A stretch of 64,000 bases of DNA from a virus (lineage: Duplodnaviria > Heunggongvirae > Uroviricota > Caudoviricetes). The stretch is from the IMG/VR virus record IMGVR_UViG_2778261667_000017; one strand, written 5' to 3'. The stretch's first letter is position 1, and each line of letters starts with the position of its first letter. Position numbers and translations under genes: made by a program. The notes under the pieces were generated by a model that worked only from the letters and a program-made list of their open reading frames with translations, ran no database searches and was not told the DNA's origin. Of the stretch, positions 340 through 9,582 are shown piece after piece.

Positions 340-1335
340 GTGACCGTGAGAGCACTACTGACCCCTGAAATTGCCCCGCGTATGGGGATCGTATTGTTCA
401 GACCAGGTACAGAGCTGATGCCCCTGTTTATGCAGGGGCGTGTCCTGCTGGAGCCTGAGCCAGAACGTTATTCATCTTTCGCCAGTGGTGCCGTTCCGGC
501 GGCATCACAACCGCTGGCGGATGATCCTGCCGTTCGGGCCGTGTTCCGCTATGAGGCAGTGATCCGTCGTGCTGGTGGCGTGGAATGTCTTGAAAGCTGG
601 TTACTTCGTGAAAAGGGCTGTCAGTGGCCTCATTCCGACTGGCACAGCGAGAACATGACCACAATGCGGCACGCTCCGGGAGCAATCCGTCTGTGCTGGC
701 ACTGCGATAACCAGCTGCGCGATCAGTTCACGGAACGGCTGGAAACAATGGCAACGGATAACTGTGCCCGCTGGGTGTTGTCTGTTGTGCGTCGGGATCT
801 CGGTTTTGATGACAGTCACGTTGTGACAATGCCGGAACTGTGCTGGTGGCTGATTCGTAATGATCTGGCGGATGCCTTACCGGAAAGTGCAGCCCGTAAG
901 GCACTGAGATTACCGAAGCCTGTTGTGCCGTCTGTCACCCGGGAAAGTGACCTTGTGCCTTCGGTTCCTGCCACCAGCATCATCCTGGATAAGGCGAAAA
1001 AGGTGCTGGCGCTGAAAGTGGATCCGGAGTCGCCGGAGTCTTTTATGTTACGCCCCAAACGTCGCCGCTGGGTTAATGAAAAGTACACGCGCTGGGTTAA
1101 GACACAGCCGTGTGCATGTTGTGGAAGGCCCGCTGATGATCCCCATCACCTGATAGGTTACGGTCAGGGTGGAATGGGAACAAAAGCGCATGACCTTTTT
1201 GTGTTGCCTTTGTGCAGAAAGCATCACGACGAGCTGCATGCGGATACCGTGGCATTTGAAGAGAAGTATGGCTCCCAGCTGGAGCTGATATTTCGTTTTA
1301 TCGATCGTGCGCTGGCAATTGGCGTGCTGGCCTGA
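340..1335 (+). CDS. DUF968-like lambdoid prophage protein with Cys/His-rich C-terminus
   Basis: 331 aa ORF; C-terminal CACCG...HH...CRKHH motif; resembles the YdfU-type proteins found upstream of Q in lambdoid prophages (from memory). Confidence 0.55.
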   Translation: MTVRALLTPEIAPRMGIVLFRPGTELMPLFMQGRVLLEPEPERYSSFASGAVPAASQPLADDPAVRAVFRYEAVIRRAGGVECLESWLLREKGCQWPHSDWHSENMTTMRHAPGAIRLCWHCDNQLRDQFTERLETMATDNCARWVLSVVRRDLGFDDSHVVTMPELCWWLIRNDLADALPESAARKALRLPKPVVPSVTRESDLVPSVPATSIILDKAKKVLALKVDPESPESFMLRPKRRRWVNEKYTRWVKTQPCACCGRPADDPHHLIGYGQGGMGTKAHDLFVLPLCRKHHDELHADTVAFEEKYGSQLELIFRFIDRALAIGVLA

Positions 1336-1352
1336 TTTTGTGGAGAAAGTTG

Positions 1353-1709
1353 ATGCGTGATATGTATGAAGTATTGGACCGCTGGGGAGCATGGGCTGCA
1401 GCAGAAAATAGTGGTGTGGACTGGCAGCCGATAGCGGCTGGTTTCAAGGGACTTTTACCACACGGTAAAAAGTCACGTCTCCAGTGTGATGATGATGAAG
1501 GCATCATGATAGACGGTTGTGTGGCTCGGTTGCGAAAGTATAAACCAGAGGAATATGAGCTGCTCATAGCTCACTTTGTTATTGGTATCTCATTACGCAC
1601 TATTGCCAAGAAGAGAAGATGTTCAGATGGCACAATTAGGAAGGAATTGCAGACTGCCATGGGGTTTGTTGACGGCTGTTTAGCAATGTTAGCTTATAGT
1701 ATGGCATAA
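1353..1709 (+). CDS. late-gene antiterminator Q (QuuD-like)
   Basis: Starts MRDMYEVLDRWGAWAA; paralogous to the ORF at 41671..42048; GGAG ribosome-binding site upstream of ATG 1353; ORF track start 1338 is a TTG extension. Confidence 0.8.
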   Translation: MRDMYEVLDRWGAWAAAENSGVDWQPIAAGFKGLLPHGKKSRLQCDDDEGIMIDGCVARLRKYKPEEYELLIAHFVIGISLRTIAKKRRCSDGTIRKELQTAMGFVDGCLAMLAYSMA

Positions 1710-2903
1710 AAAATAAAATAGATTTACTGCCGATTTTTCAAAAAAGACTGGGAACTGTTTATATCCAACGTAAATAAGGCCTCCATAAAACATGGCTGAT
1801 GCGAGATATTTAACAGTTCTCATCCTTTTTTTAGCTTTATCAATCAAACCTGTAATGCTACTCTTAATACTATCTGCATTATCTTTGATTTCTTTATTTT
1901 CTTCAAACTTTAAATACTTATCGAAAGCGGACTCCACTCGAGAACGTAAGTTGTCGAATGTTTCATTGAATATCTCAATAGAAATGTAATTGACTTTTTT
2001 TATCATCCAAAGTCCTGCGATAATCAATATTGCTTCGGTTGTTTCATTAGCCTTCACTAAGCCACCAGCTGCTATTAATGCACCGGGAATAGTCAATGCT
2101 TTTGTCTGATTAGATGATATGAATTCGTTAATTTTACTCGTGAACTCAAGATTTTTCTCATCGAGTTCGTTAAGAATTTTATTTACAGAAAACCTCTTTG
2201 TGTAAATCTCATATAGTTCATCATATTTTTTTCTGACGAGTTCAGTAGAGTTAAGCAAGTCAAAGAAATTGAATGTACCATTTGCTTTAAATACTTCGTT
2301 TATGGCTGAACGTATAACGAGCTTGCGCTCGCTTTTGTGTAAATCATTGATTTTTATTGTGTCGAGAAGCTCCTTTATAATTTCATATTTAAGAGACGAG
2401 TTCGATAAGCGATTAATCTCGCTATATTGTAAAAAATGCGTGAGTTCGACTGTATAACTTTTGTCTTCATTGGTGAAAAATAAGACAGAGCAGTCACTGT
2501 TATGATGATCAGCAATTAATGAAAGGATATCTTTCCACATAAAGAAAATATGGATTTTTTCGATGCTTTCATTCTTAGAAGTAGGGAGTATTAACGGCGT
2601 TCCGATGATATAATTTTTCGGAAGAGCGTTTTGGGTGTTTACTCTAGACCAAAAAGACTCAACATTCTCATAAATTATAGCGTCATCCCAAGATGAAGCT
2701 TGGCGATCTAGCCAAATTTCATTATTTTCGATGCAGTTTGTTGCCTTTTTATAACCTATAGATTGTAACAGTCTAATTATTTCAGAACTATTTACAATAA
2801 CAATGCTTTCTTCAAGACTTATGACAGTGTAGTAGCCCTCAACTCTGCTTGAGGCTCCGTTAATAATCTGCGCTAATCTTGATAAGTCATCAGCAATTGT
2901 CAT
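1689..2903 (-). CDS. hypothetical protein with hydrophobic helical segments in the C-terminal third, second gene of the cassette
   Basis: 404 aa ORF; hydrophobic stretches ALTIPGALIAAGGLV, AILIIAGLWMI and YLASAMFYGGLIYVGY; 3' end converges on and overlaps Q by about 21 nt. Confidence 0.7.
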   Translation of the reverse strand: MTIADDLSRLAQIINGASSRVEGYYTVISLEESIVIVNSSEIIRLLQSIGYKKATNCIENNEIWLDRQASSWDDAIIYENVESFWSRVNTQNALPKNYIIGTPLILPTSKNESIEKIHIFFMWKDILSLIADHHNSDCSVLFFTNEDKSYTVELTHFLQYSEINRLSNSSLKYEIIKELLDTIKINDLHKSERKLVIRSAINEVFKANGTFNFFDLLNSTELVRKKYDELYEIYTKRFSVNKILNELDEKNLEFTSKINEFISSNQTKALTIPGALIAAGGLVKANETTEAILIIAGLWMIKKVNYISIEIFNETFDNLRSRVESAFDKYLKFEENKEIKDNADSIKSSITGLIDKAKKRMRTVKYLASAMFYGGLIYVGYKQFPVFFEKSAVNLFYFLCHTIS

Positions 2904-2905
2904 TA

Positions 2906-4081
2906 TTAGCTGTCTCTATATCTTTTGAGTTCATCATAATTTGCCTGACTCAATTTTATCACAATTTCGCATTTGTTGTCAGTGAGAATTACAGGCTTAT
3001 TTGACTTTTCGTCTCCAATAGCTCCACGCATTATTTTCAACTTAAAATTATTGTCGTTATCTGCCACTTCAATTGTAAGCGCGCTTTCAGCTGCTTTAGG
3101 AGTTGGTTCAAATTGAGGATCAATCTGGAAACCATTAAGATTAACAAAATCGACAAACGTTCCCTTACATTTGTGTGAATCAGTCAGGCATGAGTCAATT
3201 ATTTTTGAAATATCCTCTATCTTAACGGACTTATTTCCGTATTTATCTTTTGATTTTTTTTCCAGTAAGGATTTAACTTCATTGTCAATAGTATCACGCA
3301 GTACACGACCGAGTGAGTTTTTACTAGCAAAAATATCTATAGCACTGAATAATTGCTGAATGCTTCTTTTATTGTCCGAATCATGTCGGCAACCTAATGA
3401 GTCTTTGAAAAAATCGCTTTTAGATTTACCTTGCAAGAAATGTACATATGAGTCACCCTTGTTTTCTGGATAACTGGCTTCGAATAAAGTTAAATCGAAC
3501 ATCGCAGCCTGCCGTAAGGCATCGGTATTAATTGGATTTAATCTTGTTGGGGTCAACTTATCCGAATCAAAGTCATAGGCGCTTTGTTTATCAACCATTA
3601 CGATTAGAAGTTTTCCCAAATCCTCTGGTTCGGTAGACTTATAGTGGATGAAAACAACGCTCCCCCCCTGAAGTTGGGCAACTCTCGATTCGTTATTAGC
3701 ATTATGTTTAAGCTTCTCTATTATAGCTCTAGATAAATCAATGAATTCATTATTTTTATTAATGTATTTTTTTAGGATCGTAGGAATGGATGAAGGGTTG
3801 TGATCTGAGTCTAGGAAGTTATGAAATTTGTTTTTTCGGCTAAATTTTTTCTCAATTCTGGTTATGAATTCAGATGTGACTTCATTTTTTAGATCCCAAA
3901 CTTCACCTAATCGATAATCAAATGCTCTTGAATCATTTTTTTCAAGATTTGCTGTTACAGCACCAATAGGAAAGTACGATTGTTTGCCCAGCACTACAAC
4001 ATGAGGCGTGGCGCCGCATTTATCGCAAGCTACAGTTGGGTCGTCAAGAACATTGCCACATTCTAAACAAGTTATATCCAT
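2906..4081 (-). CDS. hypothetical protein with N-terminal C4 zinc ribbon (C5-x2-C8-x10-C19-x2-C22), first gene of an uncharacterised two-gene cassette
   Basis: 391 aa ORF, AT-rich, opposite strand to flanking late genes; stop codon 2 nt before the start of the downstream gene; no family recognised. Confidence 0.7.
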   Translation of the reverse strand: MDITCLECGNVLDDPTVACDKCGATPHVVVLGKQSYFPIGAVTANLEKNDSRAFDYRLGEVWDLKNEVTSEFITRIEKKFSRKNKFHNFLDSDHNPSSIPTILKKYINKNNEFIDLSRAIIEKLKHNANNESRVAQLQGGSVVFIHYKSTEPEDLGKLLIVMVDKQSAYDFDSDKLTPTRLNPINTDALRQAAMFDLTLFEASYPENKGDSYVHFLQGKSKSDFFKDSLGCRHDSDNKRSIQQLFSAIDIFASKNSLGRVLRDTIDNEVKSLLEKKSKDKYGNKSVKIEDISKIIDSCLTDSHKCKGTFVDFVNLNGFQIDPQFEPTPKAAESALTIEVADNDNNFKLKIMRGAIGDEKSNKPVILTDNKCEIVIKLSQANYDELKRYRDS

Positions 4082-4198
4082 TATATATCCCGAATTATAA
4101 GAATGAATTTTTATGTGGCTGAAAATTCTATCAAAACACTAACGCGTACGCAAAAAATATCGTAATCTGTTAAGTGTGCTCACTTCGCCACACAGCTT

Positions 4199-4228
4199 AA
4201 ACCCGCCATCGAGCGGGTTTTGTCGTTT
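4199..4228 (+). terminator. candidate intrinsic terminator (possible tR'-like) upstream of the holin
   Basis: Hairpin acccgc-catcga-gcgggt followed by a T-rich run. Confidence 0.4.
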
Positions 4229-4372
4229 CTGGGTCTGGGGATTCCTTGGTCCTAGCCTATCCCGCAGTTATCCATTGACTCGGCTTCTTTGACGTTTCCG
4301 CATCTGATTTGCGGTACATGATGTTTCCTCAATTTGCACCTGCTGTATCAGCGAGGTGAGAGATAACTACAA

Positions 4373-4699
4373 ATGCCTCATAACCCAAATACCTGGCTGG
4401 AGTTGGTCCAGAGCTGGTGGCGTGGAGACACACCGCTGGGCGCAGTGATTATGTCGATCGTTATGGCTGGCTTGCGCATTGCCTATTTTGGCGGTGGTGG
4501 TGGCTGGAAACGAAAAACGCTCGAGATTTTGCTCTGTGGTGCTCTGACGCTGACTTTTGCATCCGCTCTTGAGTATGTCGGATGGCCTAAATCTCTTTCT
4601 GTTGCCATTGGTGGCGGCGTTGGGCTGATCGGGGTCGATGCTATTCGTGGGGCTGCAATGAGAGTAATCGGTAATAAGTTTGGTGGCTCTAAGGAGTAA
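4373..4699 (+). CDS. holin (lambda S-like)
   Basis: 108 aa; hydrophobic helices and charged C-terminus; immediately precedes the endolysin. Confidence 0.75.
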   Translation: MPHNPNTWLELVQSWWRGDTPLGAVIMSIVMAGLRIAYFGGGGGWKRKTLEILLCGALTLTFASALEYVGWPKSLSVAIGGGVGLIGVDAIRGAAMRVIGNKFGGSKE

Positions 4700-4702
4700 T
4701 TT

Positions 4703-5179
4703 ATGCAGGTACTAAATTCCCAGCGTAAAGCTTTCCTCGATATGGTGGCATGGTCAGAAGGAACGGATAACGGGCGACAACCGACACGTAACCACGGTTA
4801 TGATGTTATTGTCGGTGGAGAACTCTTCACTGATTACTCCGATCACCCTCGCAAGCTTGTCACGCTAAACCCGAAACTCAAATCAACAGCTGCAGGCCGT
4901 TATCAACTTCTTTCGCGCTGGTGGGATGCTTACCGCAAGCAGTTAGGGCTGACAGACTTCTCTCCTAAAAGCCAGGATGCTGTTGCATTACAGCAGATTA
5001 AAGAGCGTGGCGCTTTACCGATGATTGATCGCGGCGATATTCGTCAGGCTATCGATCGTTGCAGCAATATCTGGGCGTCGTTACCTGGTGCAGGTTACGG
5101 TCAGTATGAACATAAAATCGGTGACCTGATTTTCCGGTTTAAAGAGGCTGGTGGGGTGGTAAATGAAGTTGAGCTATAA
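4703..5179 (+). CDS. endolysin, lytic transglycosylase (lambda R-like)
   Basis: 158 aa; QRKAFLDMVAWSEGTDNGRQPTRNHGYDVIVGG matches lambda R from memory. Confidence 0.9.
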   Translation: MQVLNSQRKAFLDMVAWSEGTDNGRQPTRNHGYDVIVGGELFTDYSDHPRKLVTLNPKLKSTAAGRYQLLSRWWDAYRKQLGLTDFSPKSQDAVALQQIKERGALPMIDRGDIRQAIDRCSNIWASLPGAGYGQYEHKIGDLIFRFKEAGGVVNEVEL

Positions 5180-5489
5180 GCTGGCTATCTCTGCATTCAT
5201 CTTTACTGTCATCGGTTCTTTCATCTGGTCTGCCAACCACTACTACAGCAAATATCAGCACGAAAAGAAACGTGCTGATGAGGCTGTACAAAATGCTGAA
5301 TCTGCAACAGCCATTACCCGTAACGTCCTGCAATCACTGCAAATCGTCAATACAGTTATAGAGGTTAACCAGCATGCAAAACAGCAGATCGCACTGGAGT
5401 CACAGAGAACCCAGAAAGATATCAAAGTGGCTGTTGCGGATGATGATTGTGCTGCACGCCTTGTGCCTTGTGCCTGCTGCCGCTGCTGA
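5163..5489 (+). CDS. i-spanin (Rz-like)
   Basis: N-terminal transmembrane anchor, coiled-coil-like body, overlaps the endolysin stop. Confidence 0.7.
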   Translation: MKLSYKLAISAFIFTVIGSFIWSANHYYSKYQHEKKRADEAVQNAESATAITRNVLQSLQIVNTVIEVNQHAKQQIALESQRTQKDIKVAVADDDCAARLVPCACCRC

Positions 5490-5704
5490 GCGGTTGCGGA
5501 AGTACGCGGACAGTTTACGTGAGCACTCCGGCTACAACATTACCGACTAGTCTGACTTCTGAAACACCTGTACCGTTCATACCAAATCCTCTGACGTATG
5601 GTGCCAGCCTGGAGCTGAATGTGAGTCTGTTGTCTGCACTGGCTAACTGCAATCGGGATAAAGCTGATATTCGTAAAATAGATGCAGAGAGAACTAACCA
5701 TTAA
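5447..5704 (+). CDS. o-spanin lipoprotein (Rz1-like), overlapping the 3' end of Rz
   Basis: Lipobox LSGC, proline/threonine-rich mature region, different frame from Rz. Confidence 0.6.
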   Translation: MCCTPCALCLLPLLSGCGSTRTVYVSTPATTLPTSLTSETPVPFIPNPLTYGASLELNVSLLSALANCNRDKADIRKIDAERTNH

Positions 5705-5725
5705 GCAATAAAATTGTCAAATTGA

Positions 5726-6352
5726 TCAGTTGTCAAATGAATATACGTTAAAGGTATATGTCGACATAATTTCACCAAGTACCTCAATACATATACTTTT
5801 TTTATGAAAATTACTGGGAAATGAACTTAGCTCTTCAAGGTATTGCACATAAGTGCTGATATCACTTGCATCACGTTCAAGGAATTTCACTTGGCCAAAA
5901 GAAGGAGTATTAATCCTGGTTCTTTGCTGGATTATATGGATAAAATGTGTAGTTGGTGAAACTATTACTCTTGAAATATCGGAAATGATGTCTTCTTGAA
6001 CTTGCCGATAAAGTAAATCCTTTGGGTAATGGTGTTTTATCTCGATGGTTGCAACATTGCCATTATGTTCAGACGTTAATATCGACTGGTTATAAAGTGA
6101 TATGTCAACAGCGCCGATACCGAGTTTTGGATGCTCACTTAAAGCAGTTAGTGTGCTGATTTGATTGAGTATAACAACTAACTCATCACGTATTTGTGTT
6201 TCATGTTTGCGATTGTAGAAGTAGCCATTCAGTTCATTTAACTTTTTATGCATCCTATCGTGACTAATTGCTTCGATCAGTAAATCCTGAATCATACTTT
6301 TCTCTAGGTAATCCGAACGGTTGTAAGTGACAGTATTGTGCTGGCATGTCAT
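5726..6352 (-). CDS. hypothetical protein (second gene of the pair)
   Basis: 208 aa ORF 43 nt downstream of 6396..6749 on the same strand; no family recognised. Confidence 0.55.
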   Translation of the reverse strand: MTCQHNTVTYNRSDYLEKSMIQDLLIEAISHDRMHKKLNELNGYFYNRKHETQIRDELVVILNQISTLTALSEHPKLGIGAVDISLYNQSILTSEHNGNVATIEIKHHYPKDLLYRQVQEDIISDISRVIVSPTTHFIHIIQQRTRINTPSFGQVKFLERDASDISTYVQYLEELSSFPSNFHKKSICIEVLGEIMSTYTFNVYSFDN

Positions 6353-6395
6353 TAATATGTAAAGGTATTGTGAATACCAGAAAGATAACGAAGTA

Positions 6396-6749
6396 TCATC
6401 GATAGAAAAACTTTACAGCCCACTCGTAAACAGCTTTGTAAATCGGTTCATGGTAAATACTATCGATACTATTCAGATGTGCGATCATCGCCTCCACAGT
6501 TGTAGTGGTTGTTTCTAATATTTCGATTATTGCAGGGCGGTCATCATCTTCATCGAAGTATTCGAACAGCAGTACAGGTTTACCATGCCATTCAGCATCT
6601 GAGACTCTAAGGTTACAACTACCGCTCAACTCAAAGTGAATTTTGTAATTACCTTCTACAGAATGGCCTACGGGGAAAAAGTATAGGGTGTCATCTTTGT
6701 TCAAAAGCCATTCCCATTCATAACTATTCATTTGTGAACTCCTGTTCAT
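6396..6749 (-). CDS. hypothetical protein (first gene of a reverse-oriented AT-rich pair)
   Basis: 117 aa ORF; acidic; no family recognised. Confidence 0.55.
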   Translation of the reverse strand: MNRSSQMNSYEWEWLLNKDDTLYFFPVGHSVEGNYKIHFELSGSCNLRVSDAEWHGKPVLLFEYFDEDDDRPAIIEILETTTTTVEAMIAHLNSIDSIYHEPIYKAVYEWAVKFFYR

Positions 6750-6881
6750 TGAGTTTCAACAACTATCAACTACATCCAGCGAAGCATAAAAGATCGTTTA
6801 TGGCAAAACCGGAATGGAGTGCGATTCGATTCTGAGAAGGATGCCACGTATCGTACGCGAACCATCCAAGAGGATTATGCA

Positions 6882-7232
6882 ATGCCCCTACGAACCCCAA
6901 AAGCCTGCCGTGTTCGCGGCTGCCGCCATACCACTACTGACCCGTCAGGCTACTGCGAAAGCCACAAAAGCGAAGGCTGGAAGCAATACAAGCCAGGCCA
7001 GTCCCGACACCAGCGCGGTTATGGTTCGAAATGGGATGTTATCCGTGAACGTGTGCTCAAGCGTGACAAAGGCCTGTGCCAGTTGTGCCTGCGTGCTGGT
7101 GTGGTGCGCGAGGCGAAAACCGTTGACCACATCATCCCTAAAGCGCATGGCGGCACTGATGCCGACTGTAATCTGCAGAGTCTGTGCTGGCCGTGTCATA
7201 AGGCGAAGACGGCCCGTGAACGGTTGAAGTGA
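6882..7232 (+). CDS. HNH endonuclease (terminase-associated)
   Basis: Cys-rich N-terminus, DHIIPKAHGG...CWPCH HNH motif; lies directly upstream of the terminase small subunit; start chosen at internal Met MPLRTPKAC. Confidence 0.8.
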   Translation: MPLRTPKACRVRGCRHTTTDPSGYCESHKSEGWKQYKPGQSRHQRGYGSKWDVIRERVLKRDKGLCQLCLRAGVVREAKTVDHIIPKAHGGTDADCNLQSLCWPCHKAKTARERLK

Positions 7233-7357
7233 TAATAATTCTCAACTGCCTGAGGGGAGGGGCGGGTCAAATCCCTGCGGCCTGACGTCTTCCGGACTGC
7301 CCGCCCCATCGTTTTTTTATACCCGCGAAAAATGAAATTTAACCAGGAGTGCCGCAT

Positions 7358-7852
7358 ATGGCTGGAACGGCGGGGCGTTCCGGGCGTCGCCCCAAGCCAA
7401 CGGCGCGCAAGGCGCTGGCCGGAAACCCCGGCAAGCGAGCCCTGAATAAAGATGAACCTGTTTTTACGCCCATCAAAGGTGTTGAGCCACCGGAGTGGTT
7501 CGCTGAAGAAGATCTCCCTCTCGCTACGATCATGTGGCAACTGACAACTAAAGAACTCTGCGGTCAGGGCCTGCTGTGCGTGACTGACCTCGCGGTGCTT
7601 GAGCGGTGGTGCGTGGCCTACGAGTTCTGGCGACGTGCCGTGAAAAATATTGCCAGACAGGGCAACACCATCACCGGTGCAATGGGCGGTATGGTCAAAA
7701 ATCCGGAGCTGACCGCCAAAAAAGAACAGGAGTCCGAGATGAGCAGTACGGGGGCAATGCTCGGACTCGACCCCAGCAGCCGCCAGCGTCTGATTGGCCT
7801 GGCGGGGCAGAAGAAAGCCACTAACCCGTTTCTGAAAATCATCGAATCATGA
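7358..7852 (+). CDS. terminase small subunit (P27 family-like)
   Basis: AGGAG ribosome-binding site 8 nt before ATG 7358; overlaps the start of the large subunit. Confidence 0.75.
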
Positions 7853-9582
7853 GCCGGAAATCTTACCCCAACGTAAATGCTGCCAATCAGTATGCCCGTG
7901 ATGTCGTGCGCGGAAATATTGTGGCCTGCCAGTTTGTGATTCAGGCCTGCCAGCGCCATCTTGATGACCTGATGGCGGAAAAAAGTAAGTCGTTTCGTTA
8001 CCGCTTCGACAAGGACCTGGCTGAACGGGCCGCCAAATTTATTCAGCTGTTGCCACACACCAAGGGGGAGTGGGCATTCAAGAGGATGCCCATCACGCTG
8101 GAGCCGTGGCAGCTCTTTGTGATCTGCTGTGCGTTTGGCTGGGTCAATAAAGGTACCCGGCTGCGCCGCTTCCGGGAGGTGTATACCGAAATCCCCCGTA
8201 AGAACGGCAAATCGGCAATCTCTGCCGGTGTCGCCCTGTATTGTTTTGCCTGTGATAACGAGTTTGGCGCGGAAGTGTATTCCGGTGCCACGACAGAGAA
8301 ACAGGCGTGGGAAGTCTTTCGCCCGGCGCGACTGATGTGTAAACGCACACCCATGCTGACGGAAGCGTTCGGGATTGAGGTTAACGCCTCAAACATGAAC
8401 CGTCCGGAGGATGGCGCGCGGTTTGAACCGCTGATCGGTAACCCCGGTGATGGTTCATCACCCCACTGTGCGGTGGTGGATGAATATCACGAGCACGCCA
8501 CCGATGCGCTTTACACCACGATGCTTACCGGGATGGGGGCGCGACGTCAGCCACTGATGTGGGCCATTACTACTGCAGGGTACAACATTGAGGGGCCGTG
8601 CTACGACAAGCGACGGGAAGTTATCGAGATGCTCAACGGGTCGGTACCCAACGATGAACTGTTCGGGATCATCTATACCGTTGACGAAGGCGATGACTGG
8701 ACCGACCCGCAGGTGCTGGAAAAAGCCAACCCGAATATTGGCGTGTCGGTTTATCGCGAATTTTTGTTAAGTCAGCAGCAGCGTGCGAAAAATAACGCCC
8801 GTCTGGCAAACGTCTTTAAAACAAAACACCTCAATATCTGGGTGTCGGCGCGTTCGGCGTATTTCAACCTGGTGAGCTGGCAGAGCTGCGAGGATAAATC
8901 ACTGACCCTTGAGCAGTTCGAGGGGCAGCCGTGCATTCTGGCCTTTGACCTGGCGCGTAAGCTGGATATGAACAGTATGGCGCGACTTTATACCCGCGAG
9001 ATTGACGGTAAAACGCATTACTACAGTGTGGCTCCGCGCTTCTGGGTACCGTATGACACGGTGTACAGCGTCGAGAAAAATGAAGATCGCCGGACAGCCG
9101 AACGCTTTCAGAAATGGGTGGAAATGGGCGTTCTGACCGTTACCGCTGGTGCGGAGGTGGATTATCGCTACATCCTCGAGGAGGCCAAAGCGGCGAACAA
9201 AATCAGCCCGGTCAGCGAGTCACCCATCGACCCCTTCGGGGCGACCGGGCTCTCACATGACCTTGCTGATGAAGACCTGAACCCCATCACTATCATTCAG
9301 AACTACACCAACATGTCCGACCCGATGAAAGAGCTGGAAGCGGCAATTGAATCGGGGCGCTTTCATCATGATGGCAATCCCATCATGACCTGGTGTATCG
9401 GCAACGTGGTCGGCAAAACCATTCCGGGTAACGATGATGTGGTGAAGCCCGTCAAAGAGCAGGCGGAAAACAAAATCGATGGTGCAGTTGCGCTGATTAT
9501 GGCGGTTGGCAGAGCCATGCTGTACGAGAAAGAAGACACGTTGTCTGACCACATTGAGTCCTATGGGATCCGCTCGCTTTAA
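7849..9582 (+). CDS. terminase large subunit
   Basis: 577 aa; ATPase and nuclease-type layout; position between small subunit and portal. Confidence 0.9.

Follow-up and report, generated by a model that had tools for sequence, protein, structure and literature searches.

A copy of the two-gene anti-phage system DS-1, with a YejK-like component, in the Q-to-holin slot of an Escherichia coli lambdoid prophage

What is the pair of reverse-strand genes that lies between the antiterminator gene Q and the holin gene of a lambdoid prophage, and how could it act against phages? The locus is part of a stretch of 64,000 nucleotides (IMG/VR virus record IMGVR_UViG_2778261667_000017), referred to here as the window. 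A sequence-only reading had described two tightly coupled genes in an AT-rich island and had proposed an uncharacterised anti-phage or abortive-infection system. The open reading frames and their junction confirmed the first part of this description. Both genes are on the minus strand, at positions 2906..4081 (391 amino acids) and 1689..2903 (404 amino acids), and are named here DS-1A and DS-1B for the identity established below. The minus-strand junction reads ...AGC TAA TA ATG ACA..., which leaves 2 nt between the stop codon of DS-1A and the start codon of DS-1B. The transcription unit is 2,393 bp long, with DS-1A upstream of DS-1B on a single strand. The GC content is 0.33-0.37 over window positions 1600-4100 and 0.49-0.59 in the flanks, as the AT-rich island requires. 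About 7.3% of random codons would be stops at the local composition, and thus an open frame of 391-404 codons would arise by chance with a probability of about 1e-13 (our own arithmetic); conserved homologues of both proteins are numerous. The cassette has its own upstream region (4082..4137, minus strand), which includes the promoter-like sequence TTGATA-16 nt-AAAAAT at 4134..4107 (9/12 matches) and the Shine-Dalgarno sequence GGGA 8 nt ahead of the DS-1A ATG. The promoter is assigned tentatively because promoter-like sites in the region are no commoner than in shuffled sequence. No Rfam family was found in window positions 1200-7000, and no flanking direct or inverted repeats hinting at a transposon-like insertion were found around the cassette.

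Comparison with curated protein families indicated that the cassette is, by sequence, a copy of the published two-gene E. coli anti-phage system DS-1. DS-1A matched NCBIfam NF053868 (DS1_1_antiphage) with 451.2 bits (E 2.5e-135, profile positions 3-369 of 369; curated equivalog cut-off 330 bits), and DS-1B matched NF053869 (DS1_2_antiphage) with 375.4 bits (E 2.5e-112, profile positions 1-337 of 337; cut-off 315 bits). DS-1A is identical to WP_000355468.1 at 390/391 residues, and DS-1B to WP_000150292.1 at 398/399 residues over the printed part of the reference. The two substitutions are at position 281 of DS-1A (H in the reference, Y in the window allele) and at position 55 of DS-1B (T in the reference, N in the window allele). 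The gene order of the reference and the length of its unit, 2,393 bp (Table S6), are the same as in the window cassette, and the reference, too, occupies the space between Q and the holin gene in a lambdoid prophage of E. coli. Strain 2016C-3878 carries the exact DS-1 protein accessions in a prophage whose backbone differs from that of the window. The system, with the working identifier D390, was predicted, cloned, tested against phages and named in 2025-26 (DeWeirdt, Mahoney & Laub, DefensePredictor, bioRxiv 2025 / Science 2026). The cassette can therefore no longer be called novel, and the statement that neither protein matches a named defence family does not hold. PADLOC-DB v2 (2023) contained no match for DS-1A or DS-1B; this database is older than DS-1, so its null result is no argument against defence.

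The anti-phage function guessed from the sequence is borne out by the published assays of the near-identical reference allele, which was carried in MG1655 on a low-copy plasmid under its native promoter (DeWeirdt, Mahoney & Laub). The reductions in efficiency of plating (-log10 EOP) were 7.6 for Bas1, 2.7 for Bas26, 1.7 for Bas3, 1.7 for T3, 1.0 for T5 and 0.9 for T7, and the phages affected fall into the T1-like, T5-like and T7-like groups (Table S7, DeWeirdt et al.). No effect was recorded on T4, RB69 and other T-even phages, and lambda was unrestricted (Table S7, DeWeirdt et al.).

The neighbouring genes place the cassette in a swappable accessory-cargo slot, which we count among the new points of this analysis. 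Q (1338..1709, plus strand; PF06530, 2.6e-47) is convergent with DS-1B, and the 3′ ends of the two genes overlap by 21 nt (1689-1709). Beyond the cassette are a lambda-family holin gene (4373..4699, plus strand) and a lysozyme gene (4703..5179, plus strand), in agreement with the location first assigned. A prophage with the same backbone (L014) matches the window at positions 1-1454 and again at 4133-5115, with no match in the intervening part, and a DLP12-like prophage (L013) shares positions 1311-5115 at 97.5%. The swappable block (1455..4132), with boundaries taken from these sister prophages, thus takes in, besides the DS-1 cassette and the sequence upstream of it, the 3′ two-thirds of Q. 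Sister prophages keep Q and the lysis genes and carry cargo unrelated to DS-1 in place of the cassette, a KAP NTPase being one example. No empty Q-holin junction was found among 5,426 E. coli genomes, and the insertion can be neither dated nor delimited in this way. The alignment with L014 is conserved from about position 4138, where the holin leader begins (4138..4372, plus strand). This leader includes a terminator-like hairpin at 4199-4220, AAACCCGCCATCGAGCGGGTTT, followed by a T-run, and its sequence is possibly that of the late-operon pR′/tR′ region. On this prophage backbone, reverse-strand cargo is exchanged at two slots independently of each other, and window positions 5726-6749 are one example of cargo other than DS-1; the neighbouring cargo genes were not found among the rows listed in the DefensePredictor tables.

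The distribution of relatives showed that the two genes form a strict pair. DS-1A homologues are directly upstream of DS-1B homologues in 71/74 related loci, a count that is new here, and the pairing persists down to about 27% identity for DS-1B. Relatives are also found in other prophage slots and in non-prophage defence islands; distant pairs adjoin PD-Lambda-5-like, methylase and PDC-M01 (Septu-like) genes. This defence-island context is also new here. These observations bear on the idea that the pair tunes late transcription or lysis of its own prophage, as a holin partner or a late-region DNA binder, for example, the protection seen from the plasmid being a by-product. The cassette does lie between Q and the holin, with its 21-nt convergent overlap, and a convergent Q gene is found just past DS-1B in 45/74 loci. 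Against it, plasmid-borne DS-1 protects MG1655, which lacks this prophage; the relatives occur outside prophages and in other slots; sister prophages replace the cassette while retaining Q and the lysis genes; and no DS-1B was found in 50,697 deposited phage genomes. We consider this explanation extremely unlikely.

What each protein contributes was approached by profile and structure searches of the kind that had been proposed for this locus, which gave a clear answer for DS-1A and no significant fold match for DS-1B. According to its model and profile matches, DS-1A joins a zinc ribbon to the fold of the YejK/NA37 nucleoid-associated proteins (NAPs). The C4 ribbon noticed earlier (residues 1-35, 3977..4081, minus strand) is present: the CxxC-x10-CxxC motif is read directly in the sequence, and C5, C8, C19 and C22 are all kept in 19/37 relatives. 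Pseudomonas-type relatives have an acidic tail in its place. HHpred analysis by the DefensePredictor authors assigned a zinc finger (ZF) to residues 3-43 with a probability of 0.83; the Pfam Zn_Ribbon_1 match is weak (E 0.07), and the region is modelled at low confidence (pLDDT 51-69). The rest of the protein (residues 36-391, 2909..3976, minus strand) had been described as a long K/D/E-rich domain. A larger domain is indeed there, and it is identified by Pfam, structure and profile as a YejK-like two-domain body. Pfam NA37 matched with E 1.4e-23 (84 bits, cut-off 24.6), the sole significant PDB match of the AF2 model (pLDDT 85) was E. coli YejK (NdpA, 9be2; E 3.8e-14), and the family profile matched the same structure at 9.1e-20.

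Although they are only about 19% identical, DS-1A and YejK have in common the two-domain fold, the basic patch of the N-domain and, in the model, C-terminal beta-hairpins and a final helix that resemble the YejK dimerisation arm. The patch is conserved in the DS-1A family, with G218 and S220 invariant, K/R219 in 35/37 and K226 in 37/37 members. The basic triad of the YejK C-domain (R276/R280/K284) appears to be absent: the aligned residues P328/E332/T336 are non-basic, in a stretch where the alignment is weak. YejK does not have a zinc ribbon, and it is a housekeeping protein, while DS-1A is prophage-borne and always paired with DS-1B. Assignment of DS-1A to the housekeeping family itself (NCBIfam NF001557) was rejected, because the score of 80.7 bits is far from the equivalog cut-off of 341 bits; DS-1A is thus a homologue and not an orthologue of YejK. 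YejK is a dimeric clamp on double-stranded DNA with basic residues lining its pore (R173/R176/K177 and R276/R280/K284), and clamps of this type bind DNA without sequence preference (PMC11229321). By homology, DS-1A would dimerise as a clamp around double-stranded DNA.

DS-1B is proposed to be a membrane-type protein on the basis of its hydropathy and predicted helices. The division into a soluble N-terminal part and hydrophobic segments in the C-terminal third, made before any search, was reproduced. In the AF2 model (pLDDT 85), an alpha/beta head (residues 1-165, 2409..2903, minus strand) is followed by a helical stalk (residues 166-268, 2100..2408, minus strand) that includes a long helix at 220-268, and by a hydrophobic and basic C-terminal third (residues 269-404, 1692..2099, minus strand; net charge +5, pI 9.3). 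The head is mildly acidic, with a net charge of -9 and a pI of 4.8; family heads have a median net charge of -7 (range +1 to -17) and are neutral in some relatives. Residues 221-280 are the best-conserved part of the family (column identity 0.66-0.85). The hydrophobic stretches span about residues 269-305 and 364-402, and the predicted helices in them are a hairpin at 269-284/288-305 and a helix at 364-382. The mean Kyte-Doolittle values of these three segments across the family are 1.5-1.9, 0.8-2.6 and 0.3-2.0, respectively; segments 2 and 3 of the window allele are weakly hydrophobic (0.99 and 0.73), below distant relatives.

DS-1B belongs to PHROG 5023. Fold and profile searches found no significant relative of solved structure, Pfam gave no significant domain (SWIB, at E 0.09, is noise), and no toxSAS domain was found with Pfam or NCBIfam. 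Among the weak, non-significant fold matches, entries of the CorA family and AhlB/MakA/SmhB turn up repeatedly. Abortive-infection membrane effectors and CorA/ClyA-type proteins likewise have long helices together with a soluble head and a short hairpin of hydrophobic helices, a likeness to DS-1B that is a structural analogy only. A CorA-type metal-ion channel was considered and rejected: there was no Pfam CorA match at E <= 0.1 and no GMN motif, and the fold similarity is non-significant.

A NAP paired with a membrane-type protein recalls PANGU, a group of defence systems described in a recent preprint (Li et al., April 2026, bioRxiv 10.64898/2026.04.06.716658) that does not mention DS-1. During infection with T4, the YejK-like NAPs of PANGU come off the nucleoid, and in the model of those authors the release of the NAP upon degradation of host DNA by the phage activates the partner effector, to whose acidic domain the NAP binds with nM affinity (Li et al.). 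In type II, a NAP is paired with a protein whose N-terminal domain is acidic and whose C-terminal domain is a TM domain; PANGU^Ecu needs both genes, each of which is non-toxic by itself, and its growth curves are abortive-infection-like (Li et al.). The DS-1 cassette has the same order, a YejK-like NAP gene (Pag2A in type II) just upstream of an effector gene (Pag2B). Type II genes are defined as bicistronic and <40 bp apart; the DS-1 spacing is 2 nt. Pag2B (DMK-TM) has an acidic soluble N-terminus and C-terminal hydrophobic helices, an arrangement similar to that of DS-1B with its mildly acidic head, and the predicted helices at 269-284, 288-305 and 364-382 fit the C-terminal TM domain of the type II definition. 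The head may be regarded as a candidate counterpart of the DMK partner-binding domain. The tested type II example is, like DS-1, an anti-phage system of E. coli. One difference is the ribbon of DS-1A: the word "zinc" has 0 occurrences in the preprint that describes Pag2A. Type I (the NAP Pag1A and the GRel toxSAS Pag1B) also uses a YejK-like clamp as sensor, with release from the degraded nucleoid followed by effector binding, the logic proposed here for DS-1. The type I effector, an alarmone synthetase, is cytoplasmic and assembles into an inactive tetramer, unlike DS-1B, a proposed membrane protein that has no toxSAS domain.

Then, we hypothesized, with moderate confidence, that DS-1 is prophage cargo that works by a PANGU-like release of DS-1A, the proposed sensor, and activation of DS-1B, the proposed membrane effector. 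In the healthy cell the chromosome would hold DS-1A. Host-DNA-degrading phages (T1-like, T5-like and T7-like) would set it free, and free DS-1A would dock on the head of DS-1B. Docking would elicit a membrane-damaging activity of the conserved helix and hydrophobic hairpin, and the infected cell would arrest or die ahead of phage progeny. Abortive infection would then be the mode of action of DS-1. Phages related to T1, T5 and T7 degrade host DNA, and lambda is not known to do so. The range of DS-1 fits this distinction: the sensitive groups are the degraders, and lambda is unaffected. T4 does not fit: this phage breaks down host DNA and triggers PANGU but is unaffected by DS-1; the T4 assays of PANGU^Ecu were made under induction, and DS-1 was without effect on this phage at native expression. 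The mild acidity of the DS-1B head and the non-basic residues at the C-domain triad positions of DS-1A also count against the model, as do the weak hydrophobicity of segments 2 and 3 in the window allele and the fold searches of DS-1B, which gave nothing significant.

T1-, T5- and T7-like phages and lambda have unmodified DNA, and the DNA of T-even phages is modified. DS-1A could instead sense phage DNA directly, its clamp loading on incoming or replicating phage genomes, perhaps guided by the zinc ribbon, and not responding to the loss of host DNA. DS-1B would be recruited or activated at the entry site and would keep the phage genome from entering or replicating, and the host cell might survive. 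All phages that DS-1 restricts carry unmodified DNA while the T-even phages are unaffected, the 7.6-log block of Bas1 exceeds that of many abortive systems, and the ribbon is an extra nucleic-acid-type module that housekeeping YejK does not have. Binding without sequence preference, the property of YejK-type clamps (PMC11229321), is consistent with such loading but leaves no obvious means to distinguish phage DNA from the far more abundant host DNA. Moreover, lambda is unrestricted in spite of its unmodified DNA, PANGU NAPs are seen on the host nucleoid and depart upon infection, and much of the DS-1A family can do without the ribbon. Direct sensing is, in our judgment, quite unlikely.

The partners of YejK suggest another trigger. 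YejK is reported to interact with topoisomerase IV and gyrase and to alter their activities (discussed in PMC11229321), and DS-1A, which has the same fold, could contact these enzymes, sense their inhibition or hijack by a phage or a change in supercoiling, and switch on DS-1B. However, at about 19% identity, and with 80.7 bits in place of 341, the contacts of YejK need not persist in DS-1A. No data link either DS-1 or PANGU to topoisomerases, and the PANGU escape mutants map to the nuclease EndoII (Li et al.). Guarding of topoisomerases is very unlikely.

The indifference of DS-1 to T4 and its zinc ribbon would also agree with a YejK-like defence lineage apart from PANGU type II, with a trigger of its own, as would the finding that the best-conserved element of DS-1B is a juxtamembrane helix and hairpin, faintly CorA/ClyA-like. 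Because the cassette is antisense to the late operon, overlapping Q and upstream of the holin leader, read-through at prophage induction could turn the defence off. If true, such silencing would protect the lytic cycle of the prophage itself. A separate lineage, or control by read-through, is unlikely.

The case illustrates that a real defence system can be picked from the sequence alone by its position, composition and architecture. The DS-1 and PANGU type II literatures, which do not cite each other by system name, are now linked, and the link provides a concrete hypothesis for how DS-1 may work. The other occupants of the two cargo slots of this prophage backbone are mostly uncharacterised and are reasonable candidate defence genes.

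The two long reverse-strand open reading frames proposed in the sequence-only reading were found exactly where it had placed them, and are named here after DS-1, a published E. coli anti-phage pair: the DS-1A gene at 2906..4081 (391 aa) and the DS-1B gene at 1689..2903 (404 aa). The genes are tightly coupled, with a coding-strand junction of TAA-TA-ATG (2-nt spacer), and the suspected AT-rich island was borne out by a GC content of 0.33-0.37 over ~1600-4100 versus 0.49-0.59 in both flanks. Cysteines C5, C8, C19 and C22 of the 391-aa protein and C-terminal hydrophobic segments of the 404-aa protein were also present as claimed. At the base composition of the cassette ~7.3% of random codons are stops, which by arithmetic makes an open frame of ~400 codons an event of p ~1e-13; therefore, these frames are not due to chance. 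Both proteins have numerous conserved homologues. A DUF968 gene and the Q antiterminator gene (PF06530, 2.6e-47), both on the forward strand, lie upstream of the cassette, and a lambda-family holin gene followed by a lysozyme gene lies downstream. The DS-1B and Q genes are convergent and their 3′ ends overlap by 21 nt (1689-1709).

Comparison with the equivalog families of NCBIfam (release June 2026, curated cut-offs) assigned the 391-aa protein to NF053868 (DS1_1_antiphage, nucleoid-associated anti-phage protein; 451 bits, cut-off 330) and the 404-aa protein to NF053869 (DS1_2_antiphage; 375 bits, cut-off 315). The name originates from the DefensePredictor study by DeWeirdt, Mahoney and Laub (bioRxiv January 2025, Science April 2026), where DS-1, or D390, is a transcription unit of 2,393 bp encoding WP_000355468.1 (391 aa) and WP_000150292.1 (404 aa) (PMC13092281). 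The unit in the window, 1689..4081, has the same length of 2,393 bp, and its products are identical to the published proteins at 390/391 residues (DS-1A) and at 398 of the 399 compared (DS-1B). By every sequence criterion tested the cassette is a DS-1 member. It is an already known system rather than a discovery, and the claim of a novel, uncharacterised pair had to be abandoned because both proteins exceed the DS1 cut-offs and DS-1 has been published and tested against phages. From older knowledge the pair seemed unassigned since PADLOC-DB v2 (2023) has no model for it; newer RefSeq annotations, such as that of NZ_OZ547033.1, label the B gene "anti-phage protein". In that E. coli genome (locus 1466900-1470474) the DS-1A gene is split by an IS1 insertion.

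DS-1 was cloned with its native promoter in a low-copy plasmid, introduced in MG1655 and challenged with 24 phages (PMC13092281). Seven rows in total correspond to D390 in Table S7 of that study, with −log10 EOP values of 7.6 for Bas1, 2.7 for Bas26, 1.7 for Bas3, 1.7 for T3, 1.0 for T5 and 0.9 for T7, and no more than smaller plaques for SECphi27 (PMC13092281). Bas01 belongs to the Drexlerviridae (T1-like) and Bas26 to the Markadamsvirinae (T5-like). The anti-phage function proposed for the cassette was a good guess, as the near-identical DS-1 restricts phages from a plasmid.

The cassette is carried by ~106 of 5,426 complete E. coli genomes, and the pair was absent from the deposited phage genomes searched. 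In 71 of 74 loci drawn from species genomes and from IMG/VR, the gene directly upstream of the DS-1B relative encodes a relative of DS-1A; the remaining three are incomplete, through truncation or because the contig stops there. Q follows B convergently in 45 of the 74, including loci whose B proteins are only 40-51% identical to that of the window. Among the most distant pairs, which are located elsewhere, one has a PIN protein on one side and a PD-Lambda-5-like ATPase plus cytosine methylase on the other, another is located beside PDC-M01A/B (Septu-like), and others are found between the antirepressor and tape-measure genes of other prophages. The cassette thus passed the comparative-genomics check suggested in the sequence-only reading, through its pairing, its Q-adjacent slot and the distant pairs neighboring other defence genes. 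A housekeeping role in the prophage is hardly credible: the plasmid phenotype of DS-1, the existence of relatives outside prophages and the freedom with which sister prophages carry other cargo in place of the cassette all contradict it. In Photorhabdus viridis (L012, 7651-8948) only residues 5-125 of A were matched and B was in two pieces in different frames; this pair appears degraded.

Residues 36-391 of DS-1A adopt the YejK/NA37 fold (Pfam, 1.4e-23). Its AlphaFold2 model (pLDDT 85, pTM 0.78) had a sole significant match among solved structures, E. coli YejK 9be2 (Foldseek E 3.8e-14, probability 1.0), which the family profile also matched (9.1e-20). The two arms of the YejK dimer shut into a clamp with a 30 Å pore lined by the basic residues R173/R176/K177 and R276/R280/K284, where dsDNA is bound with no sequence preference (PMC11229321). 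The first basic patch is kept in DS-1A, with G218 and S220 invariant, K/R219 in 35/37 relatives and K226 in all 37; the positions aligned to R276/R280/K284 are P328, E332 and T336, in a region where the alignment is weak. In the predicted structure, the C-terminal beta-hairpins and final helix, the stable dimer interface of YejK, are retained. DS-1A scores 80.7 bits against the YejK equivalog cut-off of 341, and by these comparisons it is a YejK homologue, not an orthologue. The DefensePredictor authors annotated a zinc finger (3-43) and YejK (42-382) in DS-1A, and listed YejK among the domains newly validated in defence (PMC13092281). The zinc ribbon is a lineage-specific addition, since 19 of 37 relatives have it and those of the Pseudomonas type have an acidic tail in its place. 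Ribbon-less relatives (P0132-P0179, alignment A2) have a short acidic N-terminal tail (net charge 0 to −10), and in most of them the YejK-like body also exceeds that of the enterobacterial proteins in acidity.

In the DS-1B model (AlphaFold2, pLDDT 85), an alpha/beta head (1-165; net charge −9, pI 4.8) is followed by a helical stalk whose long helix spans 220-268. Two short hydrophobic helices, 269-284 and 288-305, then form a hairpin, and after a helical, charged stretch comes one more hydrophobic helix at 364-382. With a pI of 9.3 the C-terminal third is basic, and its insertion in the membrane is predicted from hydropathy alone. Conservation in the family peaks at residues 221-280, which join the end of the long helix to the first hydrophobic helix; column identity there is 0.66-0.85, against 0.26-0.51 in the head. 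The family is large, with 785 representative clusters within an E-value limit of 1e-3 and 377 within 1e-10, and almost all members measure 380-450 aa. DS-1B had no significant relative in the PDB by structure or sequence; among its weak fold matches, CorA-family channels and ClyA-type pore formers turn up repeatedly, a resemblance that would be only an architectural echo.

PANGU combines a YejK-like nucleoid-associated protein (NAP) with an effector (Li et al., bioRxiv April 2026, 10.64898/2026.04.06.716658). The type I NAP resides on the chromosome, leaves the nucleoid once T4 nucleases degrade the host DNA, and binds a toxSAS effector at an acidic, DNA-like domain termed "DMK" (KD 9.4 nM), activating it; a DNA-binding-dead NAP renders the pair toxic, and the outcome resembles abortive infection (10.64898/2026.04.06.716658). 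The type II partner combines an acidic DMK domain at its N-terminus with a transmembrane domain at its C-terminus; in the E. coli system both genes are required, each by itself is non-toxic, DMK is bound by the NAP at 19 nM and NAP-GFP leaves the nucleoid upon T4 infection (10.64898/2026.04.06.716658). This preprint does not mention DS-1 or DefensePredictor, YejK-based defence having been described independently there and in PMC13092281. DS-1 is like type II in architecture, a NAP plus a protein with a soluble head and hydrophobic helices; three type II features are found in the cassette (a YejK-like first gene, a spacer shorter than 40 bp and C-terminal hydrophobic helices), and the acidity of the DS-1B head is mild (net charge −9). 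DS-1 is likely a member of PANGU type II. Degradation of host DNA is a trait of T1-, T5- and T7-like phages and is not known for lambda. Shared architecture and a phage range that fits host-DNA degraders led us to think that DS-1 works in a PANGU-like manner. We lean toward a model in which degradation of the host chromosome would free DS-1A, the freed protein would bind the DS-1B head, and the conserved helix and hairpin would then be switched to membrane damage. Its weak points are the mild acidity of the head, a membrane insertion judged by hydropathy, and T4, which triggers PANGU but was unaffected by DS-1. Release of DS-1A is preferred to direct sensing of phage DNA, which we regard as unlikely, and to guarding of topoisomerases, which seems very unlikely.

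In strain 2016C-3878 the exact DS-1 proteins occupy the Q-to-holin slot of a DLP12-like prophage, and this prophage has only 1311-5115 in common with the window (97.5%). The LD22-1 prophage (L014), with the same backbone, matches the window at 1-1454, 4133-5115 and 6880-8000 and has two unrelated reverse-strand genes instead of DS-1. Since the matches stop at 1454 and resume at 4133, the swapped block is 1455-4132, which includes the 3′ two-thirds of Q and the cassette. Q of the window and Q of LD22-1 are 54% identical as proteins, and a recombination boundary inside Q (~1455) means that every cargo moves together with the C-terminus of its own Q. Other sister prophages have a KAP-family NTPase or yet another gene pair in the slot. 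Comparison of 1455-4132 with L014 3015-4427, L015 3095-4426 and L078 2381-3935 gave at least four different reverse-strand cargoes on one backbone: DS-1, the KAP-family NTPase and two distinct hypothetical pairs. The alternative cargo accessions were not found among the DefensePredictor table rows listed, and Q abuts the holin leader directly in 0 of 5,426 complete E. coli genomes. The forward-strand leader (4138-4372, 235 nt) is conserved whatever the cargo and includes a terminator-like hairpin (4199-4220, forward strand); no sigma-70-like promoter was called in it. The leader may carry the late promoter, Q-utilisation site and terminator, in which case the cargo would sit between the Q gene and the site of action of Q.

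A second AT-rich block (5116-6879) is flanked by the Rz/Rz1 lysis genes on one side and the HNH-terminase genes on the other, and contains two reverse-strand genes (5726..6352 and 6396..6749) that match PHROG 12494 and 14397, annotated as of unknown function, and have no Pfam, PADLOC or NCBIfam match. The pair is found in 73 of 5,426 E. coli genomes. In sister prophages this slot is filled either by a DUF6236 protein or by a hypothetical protein of 252 aa; another DUF6236 protein is a "predicted novel defense gene" in DefensePredictor (PMC13092281). The 5726-6749 pair is a plausible candidate for defence cargo. The two slots assort independently across sister prophages, and the most useful by-product of this analysis is a single backbone with two independently swapping cargo slots, 1455-4132 and 5116-6879.
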